NCBI GenBank assembly: GCA_963817915.1
Contig: CAWFQL010000017.1
Coordinates: 416,001-480,000 of the forward strand
DNA length: 64,000 bases
DNA from: an uncultured candidate division Zixibacteria bacterium
GTDB lineage: Bacteria > Zixibacteria > MSB-5A5 > UBA10806
Reading direction: 5' to 3'
In this document: positions 31,898 through 54,997 of the stretch, one piece after another
Position numbering within the stretch: position 1 is the stretch's first letter
Layout: each line of letters begins with the position of its first letter
Position numbers and translations under genes: made by a program
Notes under the pieces: generated by a model
What the model saw: only the letters and a program-made list of their open reading frames with translations
Database searches by the model: none
What the model was told of the DNA's origin: nothing

Positions 31898-33178
31898 TTG
31901 GACTATTTTCATTACCGAAAAGGCGAGCTCTATTGCGAAGATATTAAAGTCGCCGATATTGTTAAAAAATATTCTACACCGCTATTTATTTATAGTCTGA
32001 AAACACTCGTAAGGCATTTTCATGTGACCTCGGAGGCATTCGGAAGTATTCCGCATATAATATGCTACGCCGCCAAGGCCAATCCGAATCTCGCCATACT
32101 AAAGGTGGCATCTCTATGCGATTCCGGCGCCGATGTAGTTTCAGAGGGTGAACTTCGCGCCGCTCTAAAAGCCGGAATTCCGGCCAATAAGATCGTTTTT
32201 TCAGGAGTCGGCAAGACCGATTCCGAAATCGAATTTGCCGCCCGAACCGGAATACTTTTTATTTGTGCCGAATCTCTTCAGGAAATTGATACGATCGGCA
32301 AAATTGCCAAGAAGCTAAAAACCAAGATTCCAGTCGCAATCCGGGTAAATCCGGAAATCGATCCGAAAACCCATCCTTATATCGCCACCGGTCTGAGAAA
32401 CACGAAATTCGGCTTAAGCGAGGATTTAGCGAAAGAAGCCTATAAGAGATGTCGGAAATTCGAATGGGTGGAGCCAGTAGGGATTTCTATGCATATCGGC
32501 TCGCAAGTTGAGACTGTGAAGCCTTATGTTGACGCTACGAAAAAAATTGTCAAGCTCTACAAATATTTATGGAAACAAAATATCCGTTTAAGATATATAG
32601 ATATTGGGGGAGGATGGGCCGCTCATTTTAATTCGCGGAAGCGACTGCCACACCCCGACGATTATATCTCGGCCGTTAAAGATCTTTTTGCCGATCTACC
32701 GATCACTGTTGTGGTAGAGCCCGGAAGGTCGCTTATTGGCAATGCCGGTATTCTTGTCATGAGTGTCTTAGCATCCAAGAAGACGCCCTCGAAAAATTTC
32801 TGTATCGTGGATGCCGGCATGAATGATTTTATTCGGCCTCCATTATATGGAGCCCGGCATCGCGTCGAACCTGTCAAATATTCGCATAGAATATCTATTT
32901 TACAGGATGTTGTCGGCCCGGTTTGCGAAAGCAGTGATTTTTTCGCGAAGAAGATAAAATTGCCATTGATGAAAAAAAATGAACTGCTTGCGCTTTTCAC
33001 CGCGGGCGCTTATGGTTCATCGATGAGCTCAAATTACAATAGCCGCAGAAAAGCGGCTGAAGTGGCAGTAGCAAAAAATAAAGTATTTTTAATAAAGAAG
33101 AGGGAAACTTACGATAATCTAATCAGGAACCAAAATTTCGCTGGTATAGATTTAAAATTGGTTGGTAAATTATTATGA
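31898..33178 (+). CDS. lysA: Diaminopimelate decarboxylase
   Basis: YAAKAN, HIGSQ, EPGRSL, GPVCESSD, GAYGSSMSSNYNSR. Confidence 0.95.
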   Translation: MDYFHYRKGELYCEDIKVADIVKKYSTPLFIYSLKTLVRHFHVTSEAFGSIPHIICYAAKANPNLAILKVASLCDSGADVVSEGELRAALKAGIPANKIVFSGVGKTDSEIEFAARTGILFICAESLQEIDTIGKIAKKLKTKIPVAIRVNPEIDPKTHPYIATGLRNTKFGLSEDLAKEAYKRCRKFEWVEPVGISMHIGSQVETVKPYVDATKKIVKLYKYLWKQNIRLRYIDIGGGWAAHFNSRKRLPHPDDYISAVKDLFADLPITVVVEPGRSLIGNAGILVMSVLASKKTPSKNFCIVDAGMNDFIRPPLYGARHRVEPVKYSHRISILQDVVGPVCESSDFFAKKIKLPLMKKNELLALFTAGAYGSSMSSNYNSRRKAAEVAVAKNKVFLIKKRETYDNLIRNQNFAGIDLKLVGKLL

Positions 33179-34293
33179 TAAATAAACTCGCGCGACCATC
33201 AAGAATAGAAATAGATATCAAAGCGCTCAAGCACAATATTTCTGTCATCAAATCCTGGATCGGACCCAAATCGACTCTAATGGGAGTTGTCAAGGCCGAT
33301 GCCTATGGACATGGTGCGGTCAAAATATCTCAAGCCGCCTCCGAAGAAGGCGTAGATTTCCTGGGCGTGGCTTTTCTCGAAGAAGCAATTGAATTACAGG
33401 AAGCCGGTATTAATACTCCGAAAGTTATCCTGTATCCGGAATCGATCGAAAGAAGCATTGAGGCGGTCAAGCGGAATATATTCATTACGATTTCCAATAC
33501 TGCCCAGTATACGACAATCAAGAACGGGCTCAATGGCAACAGCAACTCGATCAGATATTTTATCAAAGCCGAGACTGGAATGAATCGCTATGGCATGAAA
33601 TCCGACGAGATTGAGCAAAATATCGTCTTGCATATTAATTCACCGACCAAAGAATTGTATGGCATCACGACTAATTTAGCCGACCCCGGTATGAATAACA
33701 AAATTCTTGCTGAAAAACAGGTGCGCAATTTTGTGGAAACTGTTAAGCACATAAGCGAAAATTCATCCAACGGCATATTCTATTCAATCGATTCTTCCGG
33801 CTCTGTTTGGAAAAATAAATCATCCAACGGTTCGTTAGTTAGAATAGGACATCTGCTTTATGGTCTTGTGCCTAATGGATCCCGCTCAGATGAATTAAAA
33901 CCGGTAATGTCGGTCAAAAGTAGGATTGCTGAAATTCATCATGTTAAAGAAGGTGATGGTGTCGGCTACGGCTTTTCATTCATTGCCAGGAGAAATTCGA
34001 TCGTGGCGACTGTGCCGGCGGGCTACGCCGACGGCTATCCATGGAATCTTTCGAATAAAGGCCAGGTGATAGTGCGAGGCAAGAAGGCTCCGATAGCGGG
34101 CAAAATTTGCATGGACGCCTTTATGATCGATATCACCGATATTCCCGAATGCCAGCAGGGGGATGATGTGATTCTGCTGGGGTCAATGGGTGATCAGAGA
34201 ATCGACGCTCATGATATCGGTTCCTGGGCCGGGACTTTTTCATATGAAATACTCTCCGGATGGAGCAAGAGGATGCCGCGGATATATCTATGA
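33175..34293 (+). CDS. alr: Alanine racemase-family amino-acid racemase
   Basis: VVKADAYGHG (PLP lysine), TGMNRYG, VGYG (catalytic Tyr), GYADGY, ICMD. Confidence 0.85.
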   Translation: MINKLARPSRIEIDIKALKHNISVIKSWIGPKSTLMGVVKADAYGHGAVKISQAASEEGVDFLGVAFLEEAIELQEAGINTPKVILYPESIERSIEAVKRNIFITISNTAQYTTIKNGLNGNSNSIRYFIKAETGMNRYGMKSDEIEQNIVLHINSPTKELYGITTNLADPGMNNKILAEKQVRNFVETVKHISENSSNGIFYSIDSSGSVWKNKSSNGSLVRIGHLLYGLVPNGSRSDELKPVMSVKSRIAEIHHVKEGDGVGYGFSFIARRNSIVATVPAGYADGYPWNLSNKGQVIVRGKKAPIAGKICMDAFMIDITDIPECQQGDDVILLGSMGDQRIDAHDIGSWAGTFSYEILSGWSKRMPRIYL

Positions 34294-35069
34294 TGGTGAG
34301 AATTAACATTAATGTTGCTGATATTCGCAAGGAACCTCAAGATAATTCTGAAAGGATTACTCAGGGATTATTCAACGAGATTGCAGAGGTTATGACCGAC
34401 AGCGATTCCTGGAGTAGAATCAAATTTCTCGATGGTTACGAAGGCTGGATCAGAAAAGCATTTATCAGTACTTATTGCAAACCATATGGCGAGGATTCAT
34501 TCGTTGTCGCTTTAAATCTCTCGCCCGGTTATATACAACCAAATATTCTATCCAGAGTTAATGGCTATTTCCCATATGGATGTTTAGTTGAAGGCATAGA
34601 TAATGGTCAATTTCTGGAGATTAAGACTGAACGATACGGCATATGTTTTTTGAACAAGACTGACCTTATAGAAAAGAGCTCTCTCGTAACGCCTCCCCAA
34701 AAAGACGAGGGGCGAATTGTATTGGAAGCAGAGAAATTTCTCGGCGTGCCATATCTTTGGGGCGGAAGATCATTTTTTGGTATCGATTGCTCCGGATTTT
34801 CGCAGGCCATCATGAAACGTTTTGGAATAAAATTGCCACGAGATTCAAAGGATCAAATTCATGAGGGAAGTGAAATCAACCGCAAGGATATTCGTACGGG
34901 AGATTTGCTCTTTTTCCCGAGGCATGTGGCGATTTCAACTTCTGGCGATATGCTTATTCACTCCAGCAGCTCCAATGGAGGAGTGGCATATAATAGCCTT
35001 GATCCCAAGAGCCCAATGTACTCTGAAAATCTCGATAAAACATTCATCACTGCCCGACGATTTTTTTAA
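34290..35069 (+). CDS. SH3 plus NlpC/P60 (C40) peptidase, YkfC-like gamma-D-glutamyl-diamino-acid endopeptidase
   Basis: DGYEGWI SH3 motif; LGVPYLWGGRS..GIDCSG, GDLLFF, HVAI, LIHS; no signal peptide; ATGA overlap with alr. Confidence 0.88.
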   Translation: MMVRININVADIRKEPQDNSERITQGLFNEIAEVMTDSDSWSRIKFLDGYEGWIRKAFISTYCKPYGEDSFVVALNLSPGYIQPNILSRVNGYFPYGCLVEGIDNGQFLEIKTERYGICFLNKTDLIEKSSLVTPPQKDEGRIVLEAEKFLGVPYLWGGRSFFGIDCSGFSQAIMKRFGIKLPRDSKDQIHEGSEINRKDIRTGDLLFFPRHVAISTSGDMLIHSSSSNGGVAYNSLDPKSPMYSENLDKTFITARRFF

Positions 35070-36209
35070 TGAATAATATTTATAAATACCTCGTTTTGAT
35101 TTTAATAATGATATTGTCATTTATGGCATTGACTGCAATTAAAGGCTCGACCTTATCAGGAGCAAAAGTGAATAATATGATTTTCATAGAAAATGATGAT
35201 GATTGGCAAAAATGCAAATTTGTCAACTGTGCTCCCAATGTTCAGGACCATTCGATTGATTTTAACTGCGCGGGCGGTCCGTCATCGCTGACTACCGATA
35301 TTATTGATCCTGGATTTCGAATTTGATCAGATAATTCTTTCCTGGAATATTAACCGACTGGATTCATTATCTTCGATGTCATTCGAATTAGAGGTTTCTC
35401 CGGATCAGGAAGAATGGTACCGATTTGGGTATCTCGCCTGGGGTGCATCCGATTCCGCCAAAATGGCCGCGTTAATGATCTCGCCGAGAACAATAGATGG
35501 AATTGGTTATATGGATACCGATGTTCTTAAGCTGAAGAAACCGATGAGATTCGCACGTGTAATTGCAGCCGCGAGTTGCGATACATCATCATCGCATATA
35601 TCATTAAGAAGACTGGCTCTTGCATTTTCTTCCAAAAACTCAAGTTGGCGCGAATACCTCAAAACAACAAAAGGTGAAAAGAAACCAATCTACGGCATTT
35701 CCAAACTCGCTGTCCCATATTTTAGCCAGAGAAATCTGCCGGAAGAAATCTCCGGCTCCTGTTGTTCGCCAACATCGGTTAGTATGGTGCTCAATTATTA
35801 TAATCTGAATATCAATCCCGAAAAGCTTGCTTGGCAAATTTACGACCCTTTCAATAAAATGTTTGGCGATTGGCCATTTAATGTTCAGGCCGCTTACATG
35901 AATGGTCTCGGCAAAGCCTGGGTTGAAATACATAGCGGTTTCGACGAAATCTACGACGAAGTCGTTGGCGGAAGACCGGTGATTATAAGTATTGCCTATG
36001 GCTATAACGAATTACCCAAATCCCCGATCCATGAAGCAACTGTCGGCCATCTAATTGTGGTCGTCGGTTTTGAGGGTCCCGATACCGTAATCTGCAATGA
36101 TCCCGCAGGCCATGATGCATCGGATGGAATAATCAAATATCCAAGGCTTGAGCTCGAAAAAATCTGGATAAATCACGGCGGCGTTGCCTATCATCTATGG
36201 CCAGAATAA
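35069..36209 (+). CDS. Exported peptidase C39-like protein (+1 frameshift near 35315-35318)
   Basis: Signal peptide in the 85-aa ORF; VPYFSQ, CSPTSVSMVL, GHLIVVVGF, CNDP in the second ORF. Confidence 0.8.
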
Positions 36210-37140
36210 TAAAACCGCGCAAATTAAATCCGGGCGATACCATCGCGCTGATAGCGCCATCATGGATCGTGCCCCCGGAACAGCTTAATAAGGGTATCGA
36301 ATTCCTTAGAAACCGCGGTTACAAGGTAAAGGAATATCCACAGATTCGTAGCCGATACGCTTACTTCTCCGGAAATGATAAAATGCGCGCCGATGCCTTG
36401 ATGCACGCATTCTCCGATAAAAAAGTCGATGCCATATTCTGTGTCGCGCGGCGGTTTCGGTGCGCAGAGAATACTTCAGTATATCGATTACAATGTGATC
36501 CGAAAAAATCCCAAACCATTTCTTGGTTACTCGGATATTACGGTCTTATTACTTTCGATATTCGCAAAAACCGGACTGGTCACATTCCATGGCCCCATGG
36601 TATCGACATCATTCGCGAGAAAGAAAAAACCATATACGATAGAATATTTTAAGAAAGCTTTGGAGGATTCATCTCCAATAGGCTTGGTGGCCAAGCCAAA
36701 AGAGTATAAAATAGAATGCCTCATTCCCGGGCGAGCTTCCGGCAGAATCGTCGGCGGGAATCTTTCCCTGATCACAAAGTTAATCGGCACCGGATTATTG
36801 CCATCATTTAAAAATAAGATAGTTTTTCTCGAAGATACCGACGAGGCTGCTTATCGTGTTGACGGCTACTTGTCTCATCTTTTTCAGGCCACTGATATTA
36901 GCCAAAGCACGAGGTTTCGTCATCGGTGAATTTACCAAAACCCCTCGACCAAAAGGCGGCGCTAAAGGCTGGACTCTAAAGCAGGTTATTCAGGATTATT
37001 TCTCGAAAGTCAAAAAGCCTACAATCAGCGGTTTCCCCTGCGGGCATGGCCACGAAAAAATCACTATACCAATCGGCGTAAATGTGGTAATTGATGCTGA
37101 CAAGAAAACTCTGGAATTTACTGAGGCGGGGGTGTGGTAA
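36197..37140 (+). CDS. ldcA: LD-carboxypeptidase (S66), two +1 frameshifts near 36444 and 36902
   Basis: GDTIALIAPS, RGGFG, GYSDIT (catalytic Ser), HGPM, GGNLS, FLED, CGHG, TIPIG distributed over three frames. Confidence 0.88.
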
Positions 37141-38141
37141 TGAAAATTAATATAAAAGAACACGAAATCCATCTAAAGACAACCTTCAGGACAACCCATG
37201 GAGCCAGCGACTCCAAACGAGTTATTATCACCGATATCGATGGCGGCCTCGGCGAGGCATCGCCGGTTCATTATTACGGCGAAAATCTTGATACGGTAAA
37301 GATATTCCTCCATCAGGCATCCAATATTCTGAGCGATGATCCGTTCCAATTGGAATCGCTGGGCAAAAAGCTTGATAGCATTGCTGCATTCAATTATAGC
37401 GCCAAAGCGGCCATCGACATGTCAATGCATGATCTGGTCTGCAAAAAACTCGGCATTCCTCTATATAAATTTTTCGGCATTACTCCACGTACAGATCTTC
37501 CCACATCCTATACAATCTCAATCTCCGATCCTGACAGTATGAAGAAAGAAACCGAAAAATCGCCGGGCTATCAGGTCTACAAGGTAAAAGTCGGCGTACC
37601 AGGCGATATCGAAATGGTTGCCGCAGTCAGAGACGCTACCAAGGCGCGAATCAGGGTCGATGCCAACGAAGGATGGTCAGTCAAAGAGGCCATCTGGCGA
37701 ATCAAAGAGCTTGAGAAGCTTGATGTCGAATTCATCGAACAGCCTCTTAATAGAGATGATTTCGATGGTTTCAAAATCCTCCGCTCCAGGGTCGATATGC
37801 CGATTCTTGCTGATGAAGGAATTTTCCGCGCAAGCGATATCCCCAAGTATGTGGGCTTAGTCGACGGTATCAATATCAAGCTCTCCAAATCCGGCGGCCT
37901 GAGAGAGGCGTTCAAAATGATCGCAGTCGCCAGGGCTCATAAAATGAAAATAATGATCGGCTGTATGATCGAGACCTCAGTTGGTATCACTGCCGCCGCT
38001 CACCTTGCGATGCTATTAGACTATGCCGATCTCGATGGCAATGTCTTGATAAAAGACGATCCCTATCGCGGAGTCACTCTCAAAAATGGCTGTCTCATTT
38101 TACCTGACAGCCCTGGCATCGGTGTAGTTCCAGCAAAATGA
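37140..38141 (+). CDS. L-Ala-D/L-Glu (dipeptide) epimerase, enolase superfamily
   Basis: YKVKVG, RVDANEGW, IEQP, ADE, NIKLSKSGG, MIGCMIE, DLDG. Confidence 0.9.
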   Translation: MKINIKEHEIHLKTTFRTTHGASDSKRVIITDIDGGLGEASPVHYYGENLDTVKIFLHQASNILSDDPFQLESLGKKLDSIAAFNYSAKAAIDMSMHDLVCKKLGIPLYKFFGITPRTDLPTSYTISISDPDSMKKETEKSPGYQVYKVKVGVPGDIEMVAAVRDATKARIRVDANEGWSVKEAIWRIKELEKLDVEFIEQPLNRDDFDGFKILRSRVDMPILADEGIFRASDIPKYVGLVDGINIKLSKSGGLREAFKMIAVARAHKMKIMIGCMIETSVGITAAAHLAMLLDYADLDGNVLIKDDPYRGVTLKNGCLILPDSPGIGVVPAK

Positions 38142-39883
38142 AGAAGCTTATACTCTGCATTTGGATCTTATTCATAGTCGATATAGCGTCGGCCGGCTTG
38201 GAAATCAATGTCATCTATCCCAGGCCCGGGCAGGAAATCGCAATTGTCGATTCGACATTTATATTCGGCAATATCACTTCAGGCGCATCTCTCTTTATTA
38301 ATGATGAACTCATTCCTGTCTATAAATCCGGTGGCTGGATTGCGTTCCAGAAAGTGCAACGCGGCGATTTTGTCTTTCATTTGGTGGCTTTCAAAGATGG
38401 CGATTCTACATCACTCGATTGGCCTGTCAGAATCGGCCCAATTATCGAATTCGATTCCACTGGTGGAGGTATCGTAAAAGGCTCTATTCGCCCGACATCG
38501 AAAGCAATTTACTCGGTCGGCGATCTTCTTGAATTTTCATTCGAAGCGCCATCCAATGGCTGCGCGTATTTCAAAATCAATAATAGGCAGCCTGTCGAGA
38601 TGATCGAATCCGATTCATCAATAAAGATCGAAAATCTATCTATGTATCGCGGCTATTATCAATTCACAGAATCCGACACTGGATCACATCGTATCTCATA
38701 CGAATTCTCTGCCAACCGTTGGGAAGCATTGACAGGCAATTTTATTACAATCGATACTCTGCTTAGCGTTTTGCCCGATTATCCGCCAGTTATCGGTGTC
38801 TTTAAAGGCACATCACAAATCGTCAGAACCGGTCCATACATGGGATATAAATTGCTCTATCAACCGCCAGGCATCAATGTTCTTGTCACCGGAATGGTTG
38901 ATGGCTTTTATAAAATTGCCCTGGCCGAAAATATCAACGCCTATGTCAATGTCGATAGCGTGAGCATCTTGAGTCCCGAAACATCTTTGCCTGCAGCTTC
39001 CTGTTCCGGTATTACGATCGACAAGGTATCCGATGGAGTCATAATTTCGGCCGAAATTGGAGCAAAGATGCCCTTTGAGGTTAATGAAAATCTCAATCCG
39101 CAAGTAATGGATATCGATATTTTCGGAGTTAAAGGCGATGTCGATAGAATTCGGTATAATTCCGATGATAAATTTATCAAAATGGCAAGATGGTCCCAGC
39201 CTCAGGATGATCTTTTCCGAATATCGATCGATTTCGGCGAAGGGAAAATCAAGGGATATACCGCTGGTTACCAGGATAAAAAATTTGTAATTCATATTAA
39301 AAAGAAATCAAATAAACATGGGATGTTCTCCAAATCATTAAAAGGCGTGCGAATCGTAGTCGACCCCGGGCATTCACACGACGCCGGAGCAGTCGGCCCG
39401 ACCGGGCTGAGAGAAGAAGACCCCAATCTCTGGATCGGGCAGGAATTGAGAACCATGCTCGAACGAAAAGGCGCGAAAGTGCTTATGACGCGCTATGGTC
39501 ACGAAGACGTCCCTTTGTATGACCGCCCCGCGATGGCGGAAAAATTCAATGCCGATATTCTTGTCTCTATACACAATAACGCTCTTCCCGATGGCAAAAA
39601 CCCATTCACCGATAATGGCACGTCTACATATTATTATCATCCGCATTCCAAGCCGCTCGCAGAAGCTATTCAGAAACGACTGCTCCATGCCACGGGTCTT
39701 CCCGATTACGGTCTCTATTATGGCAATTTGGCGCTTACCAGGCCGAGTTCATTTCCTGCTGTCCTTGTCGAATGCGCATTCATGATGATCCCCGAACAGG
39801 AAGCTATGCTGAAGAATGAGAAATTCAGAAAGAAATGTGCCAGGGCCATCATGGAAGGTATAGAAGATTATCTCGACGAATAA
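38138..39883 (+). CDS. Exported N-acetylmuramoyl-L-alanine amidase (Amidase_3)
   Basis: Signal peptide; VVDPGH, LREE, SIHNNA, PAVLVECAF. Confidence 0.93.
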   Translation: MKKLILCIWILFIVDIASAGLEINVIYPRPGQEIAIVDSTFIFGNITSGASLFINDELIPVYKSGGWIAFQKVQRGDFVFHLVAFKDGDSTSLDWPVRIGPIIEFDSTGGGIVKGSIRPTSKAIYSVGDLLEFSFEAPSNGCAYFKINNRQPVEMIESDSSIKIENLSMYRGYYQFTESDTGSHRISYEFSANRWEALTGNFITIDTLLSVLPDYPPVIGVFKGTSQIVRTGPYMGYKLLYQPPGINVLVTGMVDGFYKIALAENINAYVNVDSVSILSPETSLPAASCSGITIDKVSDGVIISAEIGAKMPFEVNENLNPQVMDIDIFGVKGDVDRIRYNSDDKFIKMARWSQPQDDLFRISIDFGEGKIKGYTAGYQDKKFVIHIKKKSNKHGMFSKSLKGVRIVVDPGHSHDAGAVGPTGLREEDPNLWIGQELRTMLERKGAKVLMTRYGHEDVPLYDRPAMAEKFNADILVSIHNNALPDGKNPFTDNGTSTYYYHPHSKPLAEAIQKRLLHATGLPDYGLYYGNLALTRPSSFPAVLVECAFMMIPEQEAMLKNEKFRKKCARAIMEGIEDYLDE

Positions 39884-39895: not shown

Positions 39896-40705
39896 CTACT
39901 GCTTAAGCGCTCCGGCAGTGATTCCTTCAGTAATCTGTTTCTGGAAAATCAAAAATACTATAATAACCGGCATCGAGGCAATCACCGAACCGGCCATTGT
40001 CACTGGCCAATCGCTTGAACGGGGGTCCTGCATCAACGCCAATCCCACCGGCAATGTGTACATCTGATTGGAATTAGTCAGTATTTTCTGGAAAAGAAAT
40101 GAATTCCAGGTTGTCAAAAATATCTGTACTGCCAGCACGGCCATTGCGGGTTTGCACATTGGAAGCACTATCTTGAAAAAAATCGAAAGCTCGCCTGCCC
40201 CATCGACTCTGGCGGCGTCCTCTAAATCCTGAGGCAATCCGTCGATATACTGCTTCATTAAGAATATCCCCAATGGTGATATCAGCCACGGTACAATCAA
40301 CGCCCAATATGAATCAAACCATCCGAATTTCAGCATCATCTGAAAAATAGGCAATATAAGCACGTGGGCCGGTATCATTAGCATCGCGATAGCCGATACG
40401 AAAATCGGCCAGGCTATCTTTTGAAACCCTCTCGAAAGGCCATATCCGACCATTCCGCAAAAAAGCATATTCCCCAATGTTACCACTATCGCAACAAATG
40501 TTGAATTGAAAAAGTACCAGCCAAAATTATTGGATTTGAATACTGTTGTATAGCTTTCGAGACTGAATGACAGCTTGCTCAGATCGACAGCAAATGTGCC
40601 CGGCTTTTGAAACGATAGCACGATCATATATATCATCGGAAATACCATGATAAATAATATCAGCCCCAGGAATACCGAAACTGTCCATTTAATGATCTTA
40701 TTCAT
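39896..40705 (-). CDS. Carbohydrate ABC transporter permease (MalG-like)
   Basis: LEDAARVDGA EAA motif; six TM segments. Confidence 0.93.
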   Translation of the reverse strand: MNKIIKWTVSVFLGLILFIMVFPMIYMIVLSFQKPGTFAVDLSKLSFSLESYTTVFKSNNFGWYFFNSTFVAIVVTLGNMLFCGMVGYGLSRGFQKIAWPIFVSAIAMLMIPAHVLILPIFQMMLKFGWFDSYWALIVPWLISPLGIFLMKQYIDGLPQDLEDAARVDGAGELSIFFKIVLPMCKPAMAVLAVQIFLTTWNSFLFQKILTNSNQMYTLPVGLALMQDPRSSDWPVTMAGSVIASMPVIIVFLIFQKQITEGITAGALKQ

Positions 40706-41571
40706 TTCGATGTGCTCCGCAAATTGATCAGCCTGAATTGAATCAATGAGAACAGCAGTATTATCATGAATAATATATATGCCGCCGCTGAGCCATAGCC
40801 GATATCGCCCCGTTGTATACCCTTATCGAATATATAATATACCGTGGTCAATGTAGAATTGAACGGTCTTCCTGAAGTCATCACGAAAATCTCCACAAAT
40901 ACCTGGAATGATCTTATCGTATTTAAAACTATTACGAAAACAAATGTCGATTTCAATAATGGTATTGTAATACTTTTGCTTCTTCTGAAAAAACCGGCAC
41001 CATCGACTTTTGCTGCTTCGAAAAGCTCGGTCGGTATGGATTTAATTCCCGCGAGAAATATAAGCACATAATATCCTATGGCGACCCAGATATCCATCGC
41101 CATTATCGCTAAAAGCGCAGTCTTCTCAGATTGCAGAAAGCCATTGGCAGGAGGAGTTAGTCCGGCCAGCTTATACAAAGAAAAGATATAACCGTCTCTG
41201 GAATAAAGATTATAAAACACTAATGCCACCACTACCATGGCCGTGATCGACGGTATAAAATATGTGGCTTGAAATATCCGATGTCCCGGTATTTTCTCGG
41301 CAATTATCAATGCTAATACCAGCGCCGCGATTGTGGTTATCGGTATCGTGCCAAAAATAAAGTAGAATGTATTCTTTAATGATGTGACAAATACAGGATC
41401 ATTAATTAGCCTTAAGTAATTGGCGAATCCTATGAATTTTCCGCTTCCTCTCAATAGCTGGAAGTCAGTGAGAGATAGATAGAATGAATAGACCATCGGA
41501 TAAAGCCAGAAGACTATCAGGAAAACTACCCAGGGCAAGGTGAAGAGTAGTACTTTATTTTGCTGTCTCAT
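40702..41571 (-). CDS. Carbohydrate ABC transporter permease (MalF-like)
   Basis: FIGFANY, ELFEAAKVDGA, GYGSAAA. Confidence 0.93.
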   Translation of the reverse strand: MRQQNKVLLFTLPWVVFLIVFWLYPMVYSFYLSLTDFQLLRGSGKFIGFANYLRLINDPVFVTSLKNTFYFIFGTIPITTIAALVLALIIAEKIPGHRIFQATYFIPSITAMVVVALVFYNLYSRDGYIFSLYKLAGLTPPANGFLQSEKTALLAIMAMDIWVAIGYYVLIFLAGIKSIPTELFEAAKVDGAGFFRRSKSITIPLLKSTFVFVIVLNTIRSFQVFVEIFVMTSGRPFNSTLTTVYYIFDKGIQRGDIGYGSAAAYILFMIILLFSLIQFRLINLRSTSK

Positions 41572-42751
41572 TTTCCAAATTTCTCAATTTAGTATTTATA
41601 TCGACCGACGCCTTCGTCAATACTTCCCGCGCTGTCCCATGGCCGTACATGGCAGCTTCGATCGCATCCTCGATATCTTGTTCGATATCGATCCATATCG
41701 GCGTTGGCGGAGTTGCTCTCGAATTCCGAAGCTGCTGCGCCATTATTCGCTGCTCAGGATCGCTGATTGTGAGATCATTATATGGCGGAAATCCGAACCC
41801 GGCGGCATCGCATAACCTTTGCGAATTTTCTTTCGATGTCAGAAATTCGGCCAATTTTTTCGCCATCTCCATCTTTTTTGATTTTGCGTAAACCGCGATA
41901 TATTCGCCGCCGAAGAACGATGTTCCTGTTCCGCCGCCTGAACGAAAAATCGGAACCAATCGATATTTAAAATCAGGAGGTGTCTTTTTCAATCTCCTCA
42001 GAAGCCATCCACCGGAGATTACGAATCCGACCTTCCCTTCACGAAAATATTCTTCTATTCTCGATTGACTCTCAATTATTCCGCAGTGACATAGATCAAG
42101 GTAAAAATCAAGCGCGCCCACCGACTCTTTGGTATCGAGTGCGGATATTTTATTATCTTCGCTCAATATCTGGCCGCCATTGCACCATAGAAACGGTAAA
42201 AACTTTTTATACAACCTGTGTTTTTCGGCAGAATTGCTTCCAAAACCAAAACATTCATCTCCCAAAAGATCAATTTTACGGCAAGCCTTGAGCAATTCCG
42301 GCCAATCGTTAGGAGTCTTAATTTTCGCTTTCTGAAGCAGATCAATATTGAAATAGAATATTCTCGAATCAAGCATCCAGGGCAGCGCATAAAGCTTTTC
42401 ATTCCAAACTGCGGGGTAGAGATAGTTTTCCGGCAAATCCGATTCAAATTCGGTCAAAAGTCCGTTCGATGAAAATTGCGCGATCCAATCTGAACCCAAT
42501 TCCATCACATCTGGCGGAGCCTTGGCCGCGAATGATATTACAAGCTTGTCTTGTCCGTTGGCCCATGTTAAGTCGGTTATCTCTACTTTTGTGCCGGGGT
42601 TTGCCAATTCAAATTCCGCTATCAACTGCTCAATTACCGGTTTTGTGTTGATATCCGACCAGAATTGCCAGAACCTGATGGCATTCTCATCCTTTCTCGG
42701 AATCGAACAGCTTAATAGCAAAACCGCGAGGACAAAAAATACCTTTCGCAT
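41555..42751 (-). CDS. Carbohydrate ABC transporter substrate-binding lipoprotein
   Basis: Lipobox LLSC; PPDVMELG, YALPW..D.R..YFN, F.EGKVGF...GGW family 1 SBP patterns. Confidence 0.9.
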   Translation of the reverse strand: MRKVFFVLAVLLLSCSIPRKDENAIRFWQFWSDINTKPVIEQLIAEFELANPGTKVEITDLTWANGQDKLVISFAAKAPPDVMELGSDWIAQFSSNGLLTEFESDLPENYLYPAVWNEKLYALPWMLDSRIFYFNIDLLQKAKIKTPNDWPELLKACRKIDLLGDECFGFGSNSAEKHRLYKKFLPFLWCNGGQILSEDNKISALDTKESVGALDFYLDLCHCGIIESQSRIEEYFREGKVGFVISGGWLLRRLKKTPPDFKYRLVPIFRSGGGTGTSFFGGEYIAVYAKSKKMEMAKKLAEFLTSKENSQRLCDAAGFGFPPYNDLTISDPEQRIMAQQLRNSRATPPTPIWIDIEQDIEDAIEAAMYGHGTAREVLTKASVDINTKLRNLENETAK

Positions 42752-42878: not shown

Positions 42879-42907
42879 TTGACATAAATTTATACTACGC
42901 CTACAAT
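42879..42907 (+). promoter_or_regulatory. Sigma70-type promoter of the four-gene membrane operon, probably leaderless
   Basis: TTGACA-N17-TACAAT with 8 nt before ATG 42916; no SD. Confidence 0.65.
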
Positions 42908-42915: not shown

Positions 42916-44046
42916 ATGAAGAAACTCTGGCTGATATCCTGTTTTTGTCTTCTTATATGCAATTCCATCATGGCATTCGATCTTCATATCTCCGATCAGC
43001 CCAACGATGATGGCTCCGCGCTGATAATAAAATGGGATAAACTTCCGCCCGCCGATTTGAAAGACAAAAATCCGCCAATCTACAATCTCGAACGAAGCCT
43101 TAGACCCGATTCAGGATTCTCATTTGCCTCATCAATATTAAGAGATGATTCTTCGCTGACAACAACTGACAAGGGCCTATCCAACAAGCTGAAATATTAT
43201 TATAGACTGTCTTATATTGATTCAACAATTTCCTGGCATTCGAACACAGCCGGGCCAGTCACTCCAAAGGAAAATTGGTATAATACCGACCGCTCTAACG
43301 TCCTTATAGGGATTATTATAACCGGGGCATTGGTGGCCTTTTTTATTGCGCTCGGCAAAAGAGGCAAGATGCTTTACCTGAGGCCAATCGCCGGACTCCT
43401 TGCGGTCGATGAGGCCATTGGCCGTGCTACTGAGATGGGCAAGCCGATTCTATATTCGTCCGGCCGCGGCGGTATGCAACGTCCCGCCTCTATTGCCAGC
43501 ATGAATATATTCGGCTCAGTCGCCGAGAAGGTCGCTACCTATGGGACACCTTTGATATTCCCCAACAACGACCCGGTAGTCATGGCAGTGGCGCAGGAAG
43601 TCGCCCGAGAGGGGTATACTCGAGCCGGTCATCCCGATGCCTACAATCCTGAAAATATCTATTTTGTCACTGATAGTCAGTTCGGTTATGCCGCCGCTGT
43701 AGATGGTATAATGATGCGTGAAAAACCTGCCACGAATCTTTTCTTCGGGACTTTCGAAGCCGAATCATTGATTCTCGCCGAAACCGGGAACTCCATTGGA
43801 GCTATCCAGATCGCCGGAACCGATTCATCTATTCAAATGGCGTTTTTTATGGTGGCGTGCGATTATGTTTTGATAGGGGAGGAGCTCTTTGCGGCGTCTG
43901 CATATCTTTCCGGCGATCCGCAGGTTGTTGGCTCTCTCAAAGGTTCCGATATATCGAAAATAATAATCATCGCATTGCTGATAATTGGTACGATTTTGGC
44001 ATTCATCGGGATTGCCTGGTTCGTGAATCTATTTATTACGGTTTAG
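42916..44046 (+). CDS. Membrane protein: signal peptide, Fn3-like domain, TM, DUF6754-like alpha/beta domain, TM
   Basis: DQPNDDG..IKW..YYYRL Fn3-like part; LRPIAGL.AVDEAIGRATEMGKP, QIAGT, CDYVLIGEELFAASAYL. Confidence 0.7.
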   Translation: MKKLWLISCFCLLICNSIMAFDLHISDQPNDDGSALIIKWDKLPPADLKDKNPPIYNLERSLRPDSGFSFASSILRDDSSLTTTDKGLSNKLKYYYRLSYIDSTISWHSNTAGPVTPKENWYNTDRSNVLIGIIITGALVAFFIALGKRGKMLYLRPIAGLLAVDEAIGRATEMGKPILYSSGRGGMQRPASIASMNIFGSVAEKVATYGTPLIFPNNDPVVMAVAQEVAREGYTRAGHPDAYNPENIYFVTDSQFGYAAAVDGIMMREKPATNLFFGTFEAESLILAETGNSIGAIQIAGTDSSIQMAFFMVACDYVLIGEELFAASAYLSGDPQVVGSLKGSDISKIIIIALLIIGTILAFIGIAWFVNLFITV

Positions 44047-44049
44047 AGA

Positions 44050-44667
44050 ATGAGAAGATCTGTTCCGATAATTGTTTGTCTTGGAGTCGGCCTCGCTATG
44101 CTGATCCAGTTTTTTATTCCCTCCAAGTTATCGCGCAATGTTTATAATGAAGTCACCGATTGGGCGCAGATAGTCTATGCATTTGCATTAATTGTAGGTG
44201 TTTTCGGCTTGATGAAATATCATTCGGGCAAGATTACCCGACGCGATAACGGTTGGATTTATAATCTTATCACGCTTCTGGCCTTGTTCATGATGGCCTT
44301 TCTCGGATTTGCCTTAGGCAGGAAAGACAATAGCCCATTTATGTGGATATTCAATTTTGTACAATCACCGATGCAGGCGTCAGTCTTTTCGCTTTTGGCA
44401 TTCTTTGTGGCATCGGCTGCGTATCGGGGATTCATGGCGCGCAATACCGAAGCTGTTTTATTGCTATTATCCGCCGTATTCATAATGTTTGGAATCGCTT
44501 CGGTTGGCAATTCGATACCTCCATTTTCAGATATCGCCAATTGGATTCTGATGAATCCCTCGATGACTGCTCGCCGCGGTATATATATAGGTATTGGATT
44601 AGGCACAATTGCCACCGCTCTCAGGGTTATCCTCGGTGTCGAACGGACCTATCTGGGGAAAGAATAA
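44050..44667 (+). CDS. Integral membrane protein of unknown function (about 6 TM)
   Basis: Hydrophobic helices; SLLAFFVASAAYRGF and RGIYIGIGLG.IATALRVILG.ERTYLG. Confidence 0.75.
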   Translation: MRRSVPIIVCLGVGLAMLIQFFIPSKLSRNVYNEVTDWAQIVYAFALIVGVFGLMKYHSGKITRRDNGWIYNLITLLALFMMAFLGFALGRKDNSPFMWIFNFVQSPMQASVFSLLAFFVASAAYRGFMARNTEAVLLLLSAVFIMFGIASVGNSIPPFSDIANWILMNPSMTARRGIYIGIGLGTIATALRVILGVERTYLGKE

Positions 44668-45492
44668 ATGAATTTCTGGGATAAAATTCGGCATTTGGAT
44701 CGACGAATCATTTTCATCCTTATGGCGTTGGGTGTTACTCTTCCGCTTCTTGTAAATATAGGCCTGCCGGTTCGCATCACCCCCGATGTTCAAAATATTT
44801 ATGATTATATTAATGGCTTAAAGCCGGGGGATGTTCTGATAATTTCATACGATCATGATACCGGAACACTTCCCGAGATGGTCCCTATGTCCACCGCTAT
44901 CTTGCGTCACGCCTTTTCCAAAAATTTGCGCCTAATAGGCATGGCTCTCAATGCCGAGGGTGCTGCAATCGGCAGACAGGCTTTCAGACGAGTCGGAGCC
45001 GAATTCAATAAGGAAGAGGGGATTGATTTCGCCTTTCTCGGTTACCGTCCGGAGATTACCGCCGCAGTTATGGGGATGGGAACTTCAATTCAACGAGTCT
45101 TCCCCAAGGATGATCGCGGTATTCCCGTGGATGAAATACCTCTAATGAAGACAGTCCACAACTACAATGATATCTCATTGGTTGTATCAGTCGCTGACGC
45201 CGATGCGCCCGTTTATTGGGTTAATTATGGCAATGCCCGTTTTCAGGTCAAGGTTGCCCCTGCTGTGACTGCGGTGATGGCCACTACTTTCTTTCCATTC
45301 ATTGATTCACATCAGGTGATAGGAATGATAGCCGGTCTCAAGGGCGCCGCTGAATATGAAAGATTGATTAAAAAGACGGAAGCCGCCAGCAGAGGCATGG
45401 ATGCTCAGTCGATTGCCCATCTTGTCGTAATAGGATTTATTCTTGTCGGCAATATAGCATTCTTCATGGGGCGAAAGCAGGGGAAGGGATAA
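44668..45492 (+). CDS. Membrane-anchored protein of unknown function (TM, alpha/beta domain, TM)
   Basis: N- and C-terminal TM helices; GLKGAAEYE..MDAQSIAHL motif. Confidence 0.75.
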   Translation: MNFWDKIRHLDRRIIFILMALGVTLPLLVNIGLPVRITPDVQNIYDYINGLKPGDVLIISYDHDTGTLPEMVPMSTAILRHAFSKNLRLIGMALNAEGAAIGRQAFRRVGAEFNKEEGIDFAFLGYRPEITAAVMGMGTSIQRVFPKDDRGIPVDEIPLMKTVHNYNDISLVVSVADADAPVYWVNYGNARFQVKVAPAVTAVMATTFFPFIDSHQVIGMIAGLKGAAEYERLIKKTEAASRGMDAQSIAHLVVIGFILVGNIAFFMGRKQGKG

Positions 45493-45495
45493 GAA

Positions 45496-46194
45496 ATGGA
45501 TTTTCATTTCATATTCGATTACTTGATCGCCTCTGAAAGACTGGGAATCTGGATCGCGGCCTTAATGACGCTGGCGATCTATTCCTTCCTATATAAAGAC
45601 AACCCCATCTACCGATTTGCCGAAAGCATTTTAGTGGGAATATCGGTAGGATATCTTCTCGTCACGACATTCCAGACCACCATTATGCCCCAGGCTATGG
45701 ATCCGCTTGTCTTCAGTTTCAAAAATATATTCACGCCCGGAGAATCAGGTGGCATCGGGCTTTTCGTAATGGCCGCCCTGCCGATTATCCTCGGGCTTTT
45801 GATGTTCGCTCGATTTGTGCCCAAATTCACCTGGCTTTCCAGGGTTGCGCTTGCATTCTATATAGGCTTCGGCGCGGGCGCCTCGATTCCCGCCAATATG
45901 CAGTCCCAGATATTAAAGCAAATCGAGGCTACTATACGCCCATTCCTTGGCATTCACGGCTTTATGCCGATTCTAAATGCAATCTTAATCCTGGTTGGGC
46001 TGATTACGACACTATTCTATTTCTATTTTTCCAAAGCCCATACCGGCCTATTCGGCAAGGCCGCCAAATTGGGCACATTTTACCTGATGATATTCTTTGG
46101 TGCGACGTTCGGATATACCGTCATGGCCCGTATCTCGCTTCTCATTGGCAGAGTCACATTTCTGCTGAGAGATTGGTTGGGTCTGATTTCGTAG
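45496..46194 (+). CDS. Integral membrane protein of unknown function (6-7 TM)
   Basis: SFLYKDNPIYRFAE, LMIFFGATFGYTVMARISLLIGR. Confidence 0.75.
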   Translation: MDFHFIFDYLIASERLGIWIAALMTLAIYSFLYKDNPIYRFAESILVGISVGYLLVTTFQTTIMPQAMDPLVFSFKNIFTPGESGGIGLFVMAALPIILGLLMFARFVPKFTWLSRVALAFYIGFGAGASIPANMQSQILKQIEATIRPFLGIHGFMPILNAILILVGLITTLFYFYFSKAHTGLFGKAAKLGTFYLMIFFGATFGYTVMARISLLIGRVTFLLRDWLGLIS

Positions 46195-46248
46195 ATTTCT
46201 ATTAATCTATTTTATGATAGAAAGACAAAATATAATAGGAGGTTGGTC

Positions 46249-48004
46249 GTGAAATTAGGATTTTTGACCATTATTCTTTTGGTCTTAACTATAGCATGTG
46301 AAAAGGTTGAAATGAACGCATGGGATCAAGTTAAGTTGCCCGGAAGCTATTCTGATTCTCACATATTATCGATCGACATCAAAGATAAGGAAATTTTATT
46401 GGGCACATATGGTCGAGGGGCATTATTCACCACGGATAATGGCCAAAACTGGGTATCTTATGACACAACCAAAGGTCTATCGTGGGATTTCATAATGGGT
46501 GGGGCATGGGACAAGAACTACTTCATTCTGGCTACCCTCGGAGATGGTGTCAATATTTCCGAAGATAAGGGCAAAACCTGGAAACGATACGGCTTCGATT
46601 TCTTCAAGCTCGAATATCTCTACACAGTCGGCGTAAAAATCCAAAATGGCAAAAGATATGTCCCCACTGCCGACGGCCTCGTCGTATTTGATAATATCCA
46701 AAACTGGCAAGGCTTGACCGAAAAAAATGGTTTGCCGTCTCAGTATATTTATAAAATGAAAATATCCGGCGATACTATCGCCATCGGTACGCTTCATGGC
46801 TTTTCTATCTCCACCGATTTAGGCGCGAATTGGAAAAATTCCTCTCCAAATGGCAAATACACAGCCGAAAAATCCTCCGCCTGCAAGGTGCGGGCGGTGG
46901 AATTTGCCGGCAATAATATCTATGCCGGATGCGATGACGGCCTCTATTATTCTCCGGATTTTGGCTCGACCTGGCAGCAAATCGGCCAGAATAATCTGAA
47001 AAGCAATTTTATTCATGATCTTGTCTGGGATCAGGATGGCAATCTTATGGATTGCGACATACAAAGAAATCACCAAATATAACCCAGCTAATTCGCAATG
47101 GCAGATATTCGATGAAAAAAGTGGCCTTCCCGGCGGAAGCATCAATTGTCTGGCATTGGGCAGAAAAGGTGTCGTTTACGCCGGTACCAATTACGGTCTT
47201 TATAAGCTCAACCACGGCCCTGCGATCGAACCGAAATCCGAGCCTGTCGATGCCGAATTCACCGAGACAGAGACTCCAATTCACCAATGGCTCCTGCGCC
47301 CTGTTGCCCCCGAAGAACAGAATTGCAAAGACCAAACCTACCTTTACGGTTCAACCATGGGCGGCAATTTCCGCCAGCATCAGGGAAATGAATACAATAA
47401 TCCAGAGGGAGTACCGCTACTCGCGGTTGATGATGGCGAGATAATCTATACCGAACCACCAATCGGCTTTACGATTCTTAAATGCAATACGAAAATGGAA
47501 GGCAAAGATATCTACGCCCACTACCATCATCAATTTGAAATCCTTAAAAAAGTCGGAGATAAAGTCAAAAGGGGAGATATAATCGGCTCAGTCGGCAAGA
47601 AGGGCAATGTAACCAATGAGCACCTTCATTTCGAAATCGGCATGTCTGCCAACGATTCCCAGAAGGAAGTCCCGACTCAAACCCGCAATTCCGAGCTTTG
47701 GGTCGCGCCGTTGGCGGGATGCGGCACGATTGTCGGCAATCTTGTTGATAAGGATGGCAATCCGGTTCAGGGCGCTCGCATTTACGGAGTCACCAAACCG
47801 GTGCCCTCAGAGACTCCTTTCTCGTTCGCTGAGACTTACAAAGATAAAGCCCATCCCGATAATTGGTACAATGAAAACTTCGCCATTGGCGATGTTCCCG
47901 AAGGCGATTACGTGTTGTATTGTCATAATGGCGACTTGAAATCGCGGATCAAGGTCCATGTCGATGCCGGCAAATTCACGAAAGTGAAAATGATCTTGAA
48001 ATGA
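46249..48004 (+). CDS. Lipoprotein: beta-propeller repeats, M23-family peptidase domain, carboxypeptidase-regulatory-like domain (+1 frameshift near 47045)
   Basis: Lipobox TIAC; S.D.G.TW (BNR/Asp-box) repeats; HQGNE, VGDKVKRGDIIG.VG, HLHFEI. Confidence 0.82.
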
Positions 48005-49888: not shown

Positions 49889-50365
49889 GTGGCGTCGGGT
49901 CTCCGCACCCGACGCTTGTTCAGCGCGGCAGAAATCCCGCCTGTCCCGTCATGCCTGTCATTCCGGCCCCCGAGCCGGAATCCATCTTGCTCCTGCGTGT
50001 CAGGGCTCGCCCTGACCGCATCAAGAGTGTCGTCAGGTCGCCTGACCTGACGACTTAATCTCAATCAGATTAAGTCATGAATTCTCATTTTTCATCTTGT
50101 CTCTTAATCCTCGCTCCGACGCGAAGTAATGACGCACCTGTAGGTATTTGATTTATCAAACCCGCCAGCAATTAGAACGAATGCCGCCGTAAGGGTTCAA
50201 AATTTTGAACCATCACCTGAATCATTATTGATAGAATCTTTTGTAGGGGCGAACCCAAGTGTTCGCCCTCCTCTTTTGGGCCGACACGCGGGTCGGCCCC
50301 TACAATGTAAACCCGCAGTAGGTCGGCGTTCCGAGTCCGGCCACTGCCGGACGAGAAACCCGACA
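49889..50365. repeat. Cluster of REP-like palindromic elements, including copy 1 of a 95-bp direct repeat (50023-50117) and an inverted GTAG-REP doublet (50243-50303)
   Basis: About ten short hairpins, e.g. GCGTCGGGT/ACCCGACGC, TGTCATTCCGGC..GCCGGAAT, GTCAGGGC/GCCCTGAC, GTCGTCAGGTC/GACCTGACGAC, GGTTCAAAATTTTGAACC, GTAGGGGCGAAC..GTTCGCCC. Confidence 0.85.
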
Positions 50366-53784: not shown

Positions 53785-54997
53785 ATGTCGAAGGAGAAGT
53801 TTGATAGGACGAAGCCGCACGTTAATGTAGGCACGATAGGTCATGTGGATCATGGCAAGACGACATTGACGGCGGCGATCACGATGGTGCTATCGAGGAA
53901 GTATTCGAAGGTAGCGATCCGGGATTTTGACAGTATTGACAACGCTCCGGAGGAGAAGGAACGTGGTATAACGATAGCGACGGCGCATGTCGAGTATGAG
54001 ACAGCCAAGCGTCACTACGCCCACGTTGATTGTCCGGGTCACGCGGATTACATCAAGAACATGATCACGGGAGCGGCCCAGATGGATGGAGCTATCCTGG
54101 TGGTCAGCGCTTCGGATGGTCCGATGCCTCAGACGCGCGAGCATATCTTGCTGGCCCGTCAGGTTGGAGTGCCGTTCATCATCGTGTATATGAATAAGGT
54201 AGACATGGTAGACGATCCCGAGTTATTGGATTTGGTGGAGTTGGAAGTTCGGGACCTGCTCAATAAGTATCAGTTCCCCGGCGACGAGATACCGGTGATA
54301 AGAGGCTCGGCTTTGCAGGCGATGACCAAGGGTTCTGATAAGTCGGTATCGATCGACGCGCCGGAGTTTAAGAGCATATTGGAATTGATGGATGCGGTGG
54401 ATAGCTACATACCGGAACCTGTCAGGGATACCGACAAGCCGTTTTTGATGCCGGTCGAGGATGTGTTCTCGATTACCGGCCGTGGCACGGTAGGCACCGG
54501 CAGGGTAGACCGCGGCAAGATCAGACAGGGCGACGAAGTCGAGATAGTGGGCATCAAGGATACCCGCAAGTCGGTAGTCACCGGTGTTGAGATGTTTAGA
54601 AAGCTATTGGATTTTGCTCAGGCAGGCGACAACGTTGGTCTTCTTATTGAGGGGTGTCGATAAGGAAGAGTTGGAACGCGGCATGGTAGTAGCCAAGCCG
54701 GGTTCGATCACGCCGCACAAGAAGTTTAAGGGTCAGGTCTACGTCTTGAAGAAAGAGGAGGGTGGTCGTCACACGCCGTTCTTCAATGGTTATCGTCCGC
54801 AGTTTTATTTTAGGACGACGGACGTTACGGGCAACGTGAATTTGCCGGCGGGGACGGAGATGGTAATGCCGGGTGACAACGTGGTTATGGATTGTGAGTT
54901 ATTGACTCCGATAGCGATGGAGAAGGAGCTTCGATTCGCCATCCGAGAAGGCGGCCACACAGTCGGCGCCGGAGTCGTCACCGAAATAATTGAATGA
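53785..54997 (+). CDS. tuf: Elongation factor Tu (+1 frameshift near 54640-54643, probable sequence error)
   Basis: [26 protein letters not shown](+1)[13 protein letters not shown] joins the two ORFs. Confidence 0.97.

Follow-up and report, generated by a model that had tools for sequence, protein, structure and literature searches.

A four-gene membrane module in a Zixibacteria genome

The window analysed here is a stretch of 64,000 nucleotides (nt) from an uncultured candidate division Zixibacteria bacterium (contig CAWFQL010000017.1, positions 416,001-480,000; coordinates below are those of the window unless a locus label is given), and our subject is a set of four consecutive genes at 42916-46194, here called g1 to g4. 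All four are open reading frames (ORFs) on the + strand: g1 (42916..44046, 376 amino acids (aa)) encodes a DUF6754 protein, g2 (44050..44667, 205 aa) a polytopic protein with about six transmembrane (TM) helices and a predicted N-in/C-in orientation, g3 (44668..45492, 274 aa) a protein with a predicted outward alpha/beta domain between two TM helices, and g4 (45496..46194, 232 aa) a second polytopic protein, again with about six TM helices and predicted to be N-out. The intergenic gaps from g1-g2 through g2-g3 to g3-g4 are 3, 0 and 3 nt, in agreement with the close spacing described in a first-pass annotation of this DNA. That annotation also proposed an undescribed four-protein membrane unit in which anchored alpha/beta proteins alternate with polytopic ones. 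Indeed, g1 to g4 are real genes and make up a four-protein membrane module of this alternating kind, with about 16 TM helices in total.

The g1 protein is a clear member of DUF6754 (PF20539; E 6.9e-108, 360.1 bits against a gathering cut-off of 27), its residues 118-372 matching profile positions 2-256 of 257. This family is catalogued only, with no assigned function or structure, and Pfam contains no model for the partners g2, g3 and g4. An AlphaFold2 model of g1 (predicted local distance difference test score, pLDDT, 82.5, from a 38-sequence alignment) contains, in this order, a signal peptide, a beta-sandwich (residues 23-115), a TM helix (124-148), a domain of alternating helices and strands (159-332) and another TM helix (335-364). 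The beta-sandwich belongs to an Fn3-like ectodomain (residues 21-117; 42976..43266, + strand) that matched titin Fn3 at E 4e-16 in a PDB profile search, also matched neogenin, and aligned to Fn3 structures with Z 9-10.4 in VIA. The order of signal peptide, Fn3 domain, TM helix and alpha/beta domain, as read in the first pass, is thus confirmed by the model together with the titin and neogenin matches. The predicted cytoplasmic alpha/beta domain (residues 150-334; 43363..43917, + strand) is Rossmann-like, both in the strand and helix order of the model and in its VIA matches, which had Z 8.7-9.4 and included phosphoglycerate kinase (PGK), domain III (dIII) of transhydrogenase (Z 9.1), SIRT1 and PDB entry 1kjn. 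There are 57 invariant columns in g1, mostly within this domain, and the invariant polar residues of the domain include R156, R170, E173, K176, E228, E283, E289, D303, D316 and E323. Neither Pfam nor the PDB profile search gave a match of g1 to an enzyme family. One Cys is invariant in g1 and none in g2 or g4, and the homologue alignments of the four subunits contain no invariant Cys pairs or His fit for cofactors.

No Pfam, NCBIfam or PDB sequence family matched g2, g3 or g4. When homologues of these proteins were searched member by member against Pfam at E<=1, nothing consistent emerged, the commonest weak votes being 7TMR-DISM_7TM (10/41) and DUF3704 (22/38, over a 12-residue stretch). The sole MFS_1 signal in the module came from g2 (E 0.57), whose 9.5 bits fall short of the cut-off of 33.4; with no MFS_1 match above cut-off, we rejected identity with a permease of the major facilitator superfamily (MFS)/AmpG type. 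The g3 model (pLDDT 93.6) has a TM helix at residues 12-28, an alpha/beta domain at 39-233 (domain bounds 34-238) and a long TM helix at 239-273. Its family counts 5090 representatives at E<=1e-3 and 3709 at 1e-10 (50% identity clusters, from 1.84 billion proteins), some of them with inserted domains. Two g2 relatives have an insertion of about 260 residues in the outward TM3-TM4 loop; a search for longer g2 forms returned two proteins, both of them loop-insertion g2, and no fusions between subunits. In the ESM Atlas, g2 relatives form hypothetical clusters only. A regular-expression search of g1 to g4 found no Walker A motif, which bears out, for Walker A, the earlier remark that Walker motifs are missing. 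Foldseek searches of the g1 and g3 models against the PDB gave Fn3 and generic Rossmann matches only, and a wide VIA-align search with the alpha/beta domains of g1 and g3 again gave generic Rossmann-like matches, with Z of about 8-10. The sequence searches matched no transporter, pump or enzyme that has been studied, and neither did the fold searches with g1 and g3.

Distribution and inheritance of the module

In a scan of species-representative genomes we confirmed 580 g1 relatives; locus counts given here refer to the best 80. The source records of these loci are titled Zixibacteria, WOR-3, Stahlbacteria, TA06, Eisenbacteria, Coatesbacteria, Latescibacterota, Hydrothermota and UBP2. By tblastn, all four genes are adjacent in 63/80 loci, and 14 of the remaining 17 are cut by contig ends. 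The whole module is duplicated in tandem in L048, L052, L072 and L073. Neighbours beyond g1-g4 are not conserved, the commonest clusters occurring in at most 14/80 loci and being bound to lineages. PF20539 was found in 151/151 sampled Zixibacteria genomes (88/88 genera), usually with 4-6 matches each, and in 47 of the 51 genomes sampled from a second phylum, and it was found in 0/14 control genomes.

The genome from which the window derives (3.33 Mb, 22 contigs, 93.9% complete) has four complete modules, namely the window copy and three copies on contig 12, one at L086 7459-10787 and two in tandem at L087 7204-11111 and 11181-14707. The g1 gene of the first tandem module is split into parts of 307 and 176 aa (L087 7204-8786). 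As neighbours, these three copies have a copper-ATPase-like gene, pyrimidine genes and uncharacterised genes. When 13 modules from 5 genomes were compared, the four genes gave pairwise-identity matrices that correlate with one another (r 0.74-0.87), and modules cluster by array position, in positional classes, and not by genome. The correlated matrices and the positional grouping together imply that modules are inherited as units.

A MutL/GlmL-type gene and protein X are linked to the module

Two further genes accompany the module in many genomes. In L091-L094, a MutL-like gene and a gene for a protein here called X are followed by 2-3 complete modules; in L092, L093 and L094 all of these genes lie on one strand, and in L091 the three modules run divergently from the pair. 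The order of MutL-like gene, 377-aa X and g1 is also present in L052, L055, L058 and L065 of the 80 loci. A hand count placed a DUF6754 match at most 5 kb from the MutL-like gene in at least 49 Zixibacteria genomes, which is a lower bound because only 150/729 DUF6754 matches were compared. PF13941, the MutL/GlmL family, was found in 149/151 Zixibacteria genomes (nearly always as one match), in 47/51 genomes of the second phylum, with module adjacency, counted by hand, in 10 genomes, and as exactly one match in 5/5 genomes of other lineages. In the second phylum, 46 of the 51 genomes have both DUF6754 and PF13941, 3 have neither (G166, G180 and G201), and the two discordant genomes (G178 and G189) comprise one with DUF6754 only and one with the MutL-like gene only; the co-occurrence has a Fisher p of 7.6e-4, in genomes that are related and for which the completeness of the metagenome-assembled genomes (MAGs) is not given.

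The single PF13941 gene of the present genome (G000:C17:63991-65439, 628 aa) matches the family end to end at E 7e-128, and its product carries the motifs DCGSTTTK and DIGGATTD, which we take to be phosphate-binding motifs of actin-fold ATPases. From its sequence, the protein would be ATPase-like, with an actin (ASKHA; acetate and sugar kinase, Hsc70, actin) fold and a predicted activity only. It has no X or module beside it; in this region, which lies outside the window (G000:C17:63991-66500; L089 7959-10484), the gene is immediately followed by a transposase gene of IS200 type (Y1_Tnp). Protein X is a conserved protein of about 375 aa, with 71% mean column identity over 8 sequences, and its N-terminus gives weak barrel-sandwich signals, RnfC_N in 4/8 members, where the best E of 0.007 does not reach the Pfam cut-off, and Biotin_lipoyl in 3/8. 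The single X homologue of this genome (G000:C18:86226-87353) is 52% identical to X of L052, a locus from a second-phylum genome, and the X-like clusters of the Atlas, all of them hypothetical, are labelled Zixibacteria, Planctomycetota, Fidelibacterota and Chloroflexota. With PDB sequence profiles, no match of g2, g3, g4, X or the MutL-like protein had an E value under 0.05, and no PDB sequence relatives of X or of the MutL-like protein were found. Operationally, we define the module by adjacent, co-oriented g1-g4 genes with a single PF13941 gene and X in the same genome, and all of these are present here. A protein of about 424 aa with a C-terminal SLBB domain is encoded directly upstream of g1 in the WOR-3/Stahlbacteria loci L044, L047, L049, L050, L061, L063, L066, L067, L070 and L078; as a relative of X it was rejected (BLASTP E 0.059).

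Within the library searched, no paper mentions DUF6754, PF20539 or PF13941. The Pfam family of g1 is catalogued but uncharacterised, family models are lacking for g2, g3, g4 and X, and none of the four module proteins has a studied relative.

Membrane topology and pseudo-symmetry

Topology was assigned by the positive-inside rule, from counts of lysine plus arginine (K+R) over 38-41 homologues per family. The segment after TM1 of g1 holds 3.55 K+R, which puts the alpha/beta domain of g1 inside, and the N and C tails of g3 hold 3.55 and 3.12, which puts the domain of g3 outside. These counts bear out the first-pass topology, in which the g1 domain was cytoplasmic and the g3 domain faced outward. 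In g2, loops 2-3 and 4-5 are the positive ones, and the protein is predicted to be N-in; in g4 they are loops 3-4 and 5-6, and the prediction is N-out. The predicted orientations are thus opposite within both pairs, with the g1 domain inside and the g3 domain outside, and with the N-terminus of g2 inside and that of g4 outside.

The arrangement had been read as an inverted pseudo-symmetry, in part from a similarity between the ends of genes 1 and 3. This similarity could not be told from chance: BLASTP of g1 against g3 returned only a 25-residue TM stretch at E 0.058, and in profile comparisons the hhalign probability was 0.7% with the full-length proteins and 0.3% with the soluble domains, values that do not exceed those of reversed controls. 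In the structural comparison, the best VIA match of the g3 domain was MT0777 (1kjn_B, 152 residues; Z 9.8, root-mean-square deviation (rmsd) 3.1, 137 aligned); the same chain aligned to the g1 domain with Z 8.7, rmsd 3.6 and 133 aligned, and both domains also matched SIRT1, at Z 8.5 and 8.8. MT0777 (PDB 1kjn), a small Rossmann-like protein without assigned function, aligns over its whole chain with both domains at 10-11% identity, in a range of scores where merely a common arrangement may be shared, and the likeness carries no functional information. The models thus support a common Rossmann-like fold class for the domains of g1 and g3 but no homology between them.

For g2 and g4, BLASTP gave no match. 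With hhalign, the N-terminal half of g2 (TM1-3) matched the C-terminal half of g4 (TM4-6) at a probability of 63% (E 7e-5, 85 columns; 6% for the reversed control). By the charge counts both of these units start inside, which would make them parallel rather than inverted, should the match be real. What stands of the proposed pseudo-symmetry is therefore that topologies are opposite and that both domains are Rossmann-like, whereas homology of g1 and g3 was undetected and the g2/g4 match is weak and in parallel register. The same holds for the comparison with an inverted-repeat secondary carrier: homology was found neither between g1 and g3 (0.7% and 0.3%) nor, beyond the half-to-half match, between g2 and g4, and the whole proteins are opposite in orientation, yet the sole matched three-TM units are parallel, as judged from charge counts only.

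Conservation gradient and a proposed mechanism

Mean identity over 11 within-genome paralogue pairs from five genomes revealed a gradient across the module. The cytoplasmic domain of g1 is its most conserved part (64%), followed by g4 (46%), g2 (45.5%), the outward domain of g3 (38%), TM1 of g1 (28%) and, as the least conserved part, the Fn3 domain of g1 (26%). Such a near-constant cytoplasmic part, combined with divergent outward parts, fits one cytoplasmic partner shared by all modules.

From these observations we infer a physical complex, docking, use of ATP, and transport with its direction and substrate, as follows. The products of g1 to g4 would assemble as a heteromeric inner-membrane module with g2 and g4 as the membrane core, to which g1 would give its outward Fn3 domain and its highly conserved cytoplasmic Rossmann-like domain, and g3 its outward Rossmann-like domain. 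The several paralogous modules of a genome (four here) would share one cytoplasmic pair, the MutL/GlmL-type protein and X, and this pair would dock on the cytoplasmic domain of g1 and drive a conformational cycle. What each module handles would be set by the divergent outward parts, that is, the Fn3 domain, the g3 domain and the insertions in g2 and g3. The likeliest job would be ATP-dependent movement of a solute across the membrane; import is our guess, the pair acting as a shared energiser that serves many specific units. That a four-protein module and a shared MutL-like/X pair carry out ATP-dependent transmembrane work is the best explanation overall, and we favour it tentatively, at somewhat less than an even chance. 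The more specific proposal, that module, MutL/GlmL-type protein and X constitute a new class of primary active membrane machine in which one shared actin-fold ATPase powers transport (probably uptake) of different substrates, is possible but rather doubtful.

Several points weigh against this explanation. Three loci with ample flanking sequence lack g3 and g4 (L020 and L030) or g2-g4 (L060). Neither the MutL-like gene of the present genome, on contig 17 and some 395 kb away from the window copy, nor X, on contig 18, adjoins a module; the array of MutL-like gene, X and modules appears to have been broken up here, unlike in other Zixibacteria. Two Zixibacteria genomes (G085 and G122) and one from the second phylum (G178) have DUF6754 with no MutL-like match. 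Moreover, co-occurrence within phyla where both genes are nearly universal is weak evidence, the two-by-two table being drawn from related MAGs. The high conservation of the g1 domain would also fit the active or catalytic site of an enzyme. Lastly, nothing in the data points to a direction or substrate of transport, and we know of no actin-fold ATPase that powers a transporter.

The module, which is widespread and has never been studied, probably belongs to a membrane machine of a new kind. Its reach can be seen from the 5090 representatives of the g3 family and from the presence of DUF6754 in every sampled Zixibacteria genome. If the link to the actin-fold ATPase is mechanistic, it would amount to a new way of energising membrane work, by a principle so far undescribed for any transporter, and it could explain nutrient uptake in many uncultured, protein-degrading lineages.

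Gene neighbourhood and stem-peptide import

A promoter-like site, TTGACA-17-TACAAT (42879..42907, + strand), is an 11/12 consensus match found by pattern scan only, and 9 nt separate its -10 element from the g1 ATG; given this spacing, the g1 transcript may be leaderless or nearly so. A mirror promoter-like site at 42788-42759 on the - strand, again a consensus pattern match only, would serve a divergent binding-protein gene. The best terminator-like site on the + strand, at 50246-50269 (pattern match only), lies beyond three more co-oriented genes after g4, and the pattern scan found no strong terminator-like site between g4 and the M23 gene downstream.

By Pfam, the genes directly upstream of the module encode an ATP-binding cassette (ABC) importer of CUT1 type, with a binding protein and two permeases (39896-42751, - strand). 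Beyond it lies an island of co-oriented murein-peptide genes at 30446-39883, which comprises an S13 D-Ala-D-Ala carboxypeptidase gene (30446-31894) and genes for an ornithine/diaminopimelate (Orn/DAP)-decarboxylase type protein, an alanine racemase, an NlpC/P60 protein with SH3, a C39-like peptidase, a short S66 LD-carboxypeptidase ORF (166 aa), an MR_MLE protein of the L-Ala-D/L-Glu epimerase type and an Amidase_3 protein. Downstream of the module are BNR-M23, DUF72 and S11 genes. Among the 80 loci, M23 comes after the module in 13, DUF72 in 11 and S11 in 13, all of them in Zixibacteria; the upstream murein set is kept in the closest relatives only, and cell-wall neighbours are absent outside part of Zixibacteria.

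The first-pass annotation had suggested that the module imports murein stem peptides, on the grounds that the locus lacks an Opp, Mpp or AmpG importer. At the Pfam level this absence holds for the window ORFs scanned, but a CUT1-type ABC importer adjoins the module. Features of an Opp/Dpp/Mpp-type ABC importer are missing from g1-g4 as well (no Walker A motif, no BPD_transp_1 or SBP_bac_5 match), and neither OppC_N nor PTR2 was matched in the genome. The one SBP_bac_5 gene of the genome, for an Opp-type binding protein (G000:C15:406-5316, L100), has no permease genes after it but genes for a histidine kinase with dCache and HAMP domains and for a sigma-54 response regulator, and it looks like a sensor rather than a transporter. 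The genome also carries an OPT-family gene and a CstA gene, both of peptide-type transporters. An association of DUF6754 clusters with peptidase genes, which the suggestion led one to expect elsewhere, is limited to part of Zixibacteria. The four copies have differing neighbours, the cell-wall genes are local to a lineage and OPT and CstA are present, findings that leave the suggestion unsupported; for the window paralogue in particular, nothing specific supports stem-peptide import, which we consider improbable to very improbable. Local neighbours easily mislead annotation, in this case towards a cell-wall peptide importer.

Further observations on the window and the assembly

The BNR/Sortilin-type and M23 gene downstream of the module (46243-48004) is interrupted, its two ORFs at 46243-47082 and 47015-48004 overlapping but differing in frame, and its relatives have one ORF of about 583 aa (e.g., L004 11321-13072); the split is a frameshift or an assembly indel. 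Conserved genes are also split into two adjacent or overlapping ORFs at window 53785-54994, window 16452-17694, L089 5231-7043 and L087 7204-8786, the genes being EF-Tu (domains 1-2, then domain 3), DUF1015, carbamoyltransferase and the g1 of one paralogous module. Splits in several conserved genes suggest assembly indel errors rather than many real pseudogenes. Elsewhere in the window, a TonB-dependent receptor with a CarboxypepD_reg domain is followed by four large ORFs (21276-30380), one of which has weak FadL/PorV-type matches and three of which have no Pfam match. A fused SBP_bac_3-permease gene, an ABC ATPase gene and a gene for a 1046-aa M1-family peptidase occupy 1583-6937, and an S8 subtilase gene lies at 8564-10243.

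Alternative explanations

A credible rival to transport is a mechanotransmission device, in which movements of the cytoplasmic ATPase would be relayed through the module to outward domains that control or position extracytoplasmic enzymes. FtsEX, which controls cell-wall hydrolases, is the system to which such a device may be likened. Domains on both membrane faces would suit this role, as would the variability of the outward domains and insertions, and the paralogue class of the window lies between Amidase_3 and M23 genes, with S11 and S13 carboxypeptidase genes near and no strong terminator-like site ahead of the M23 gene. However, hydrolase neighbours are confined to this one paralogue class in one phylum, Atlas relatives of X and g2 occur in clusters of Planctomycetota, Chloroflexota and Bacillota, the envelopes of which are very different, and there is no direct evidence for any partner enzyme; we therefore regard mechanotransmission as unlikely, although not negligible. 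A weaker reading makes the module a membrane-anchored enzyme, with the cytoplasmic domain of g1 as its catalytic part, the other subunits as scaffolds and the MutL-like protein as a reactivating or maturation chaperone, the role proposed for GlmL towards glutamate mutase. The very high conservation of the g1 domain, with its many invariant polar residues, would be expected of such an enzyme, and the Pfam name of the MutL/GlmL family points to a B12-mutase context. Yet g1 has no sequence match to any enzyme family, its fold matches are generic and no invariant His is available for B12 binding, and two conserved polytopic subunits as well as the outward domains would be left unexplained. This makes the enzyme reading improbable.

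Weaker than mechanotransmission, too, is the idea of a redox-driven or ion-translocating complex of the Rnf/Nqr type. Such complexes combine two oppositely oriented six-helix subunits of about 200 aa with a bitopic subunit that bears an outward domain and a soluble one that contains an RnfC_N-like barrel. The sizes of g2 and g4 (about 200-230 aa), their six TM helices and their opposite predicted orientations recall this plan, X has its weak RnfC_N (4/8) and Biotin_lipoyl (3/8) matches, and the g1 domain aligns to transhydrogenase dIII (Z 9.1). Six-frame searches did not find Rnf-Nqr (PF02508) in 26/26 Zixibacteria genomes, so that such a function could be vacant there. But PF02508 matched 0/41 g2 and 0/38 g4 homologues even at E<=1, no subunit has invariant Cys pairs or His for cofactors, a glycine-rich dinucleotide loop is lacking, the Z scores lie within the generic Rossmann range, and 4-6 copies per genome would be unusual for a respiratory complex; we give this type of complex hardly any probability. 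Nearly as poor are the prospects of the first-pass reading itself, a self-contained secondary carrier built of two inverted-topology pairs that imports murein stem peptides for cytoplasmic enzymes encoded nearby. It can draw on the opposite predicted topologies in both pairs, on two Rossmann-like domains that align to the whole of 1kjn_B, on the murein-peptide genes flanking the module, with M23, DUF72 and S11 after it in 13, 11 and 13 of 80 loci, and on a genome that has no OppC_N or PTR2 match and whose only SBP_bac_5 gene stands beside a sensor kinase and a sigma-54 regulator. Set against this, g1/g3 homology was not detected and the weak g2/g4 match is in parallel register, the other three copies lie beside copper-ATPase-like, pyrimidine and uncharacterised genes, cell-wall neighbours are absent outside part of Zixibacteria, and the genome has OPT, CstA and, adjoining the module, a CUT1 ABC importer. 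Above all, adjacency and co-occurrence tie the module family to a single-copy actin-fold ATPase-like gene and to X, and it is therefore probably not a self-contained secondary carrier; stem-peptide import by such a carrier is very unlikely. ATP-dependent transmembrane work by modules that share a MutL-like/X pair thus remains the explanation that we prefer, and it is this explanation that is set beside known systems below.

Comparison with known systems

The linked MutL-like protein resembles GlmL/MutL of clostridial glutamate mutase in its full-length PF13941 match and in having kept both phosphate-type motifs. It differs in its length of about 620 aa, with a C-terminal extension of about 130 aa past the end of the Pfam match at residue 494, and in that its gene adjoins X and DUF6754 modules and does not lie between mutase subunit genes. 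The window has an enzyme side around the module similar to that of E. coli MppA-Opp/LdcA/YcjG and B. subtilis ykfABCD. These and other murein-peptide recycling sets use Opp-type ABC importers, to which the module has no likeness, and for the module family as a whole the association fails. Na+-NQR and Rnf are alike in their two small six-helix subunits of opposite orientation, in a bitopic subunit with an outward domain and, in that X is weakly RnfC_N-like, in a soluble component, whereas the module has no PF02508 match and no conserved cofactor-binding residues and is present in multiple copies.

In Group II energy-coupling factor (ECF) transporters, a shared energising module serves many membrane S components. 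The module described here differs from them in having four proteins per unit, no ABC ATPase or Walker A motif and no EcfT or S-component Pfam match, and its candidate energiser would be of the actin fold. The likeness, an analogy only, is one of gene-number logic: here, too, one shared ATPase-like unit is found together with several dispersed and divergent membrane units.

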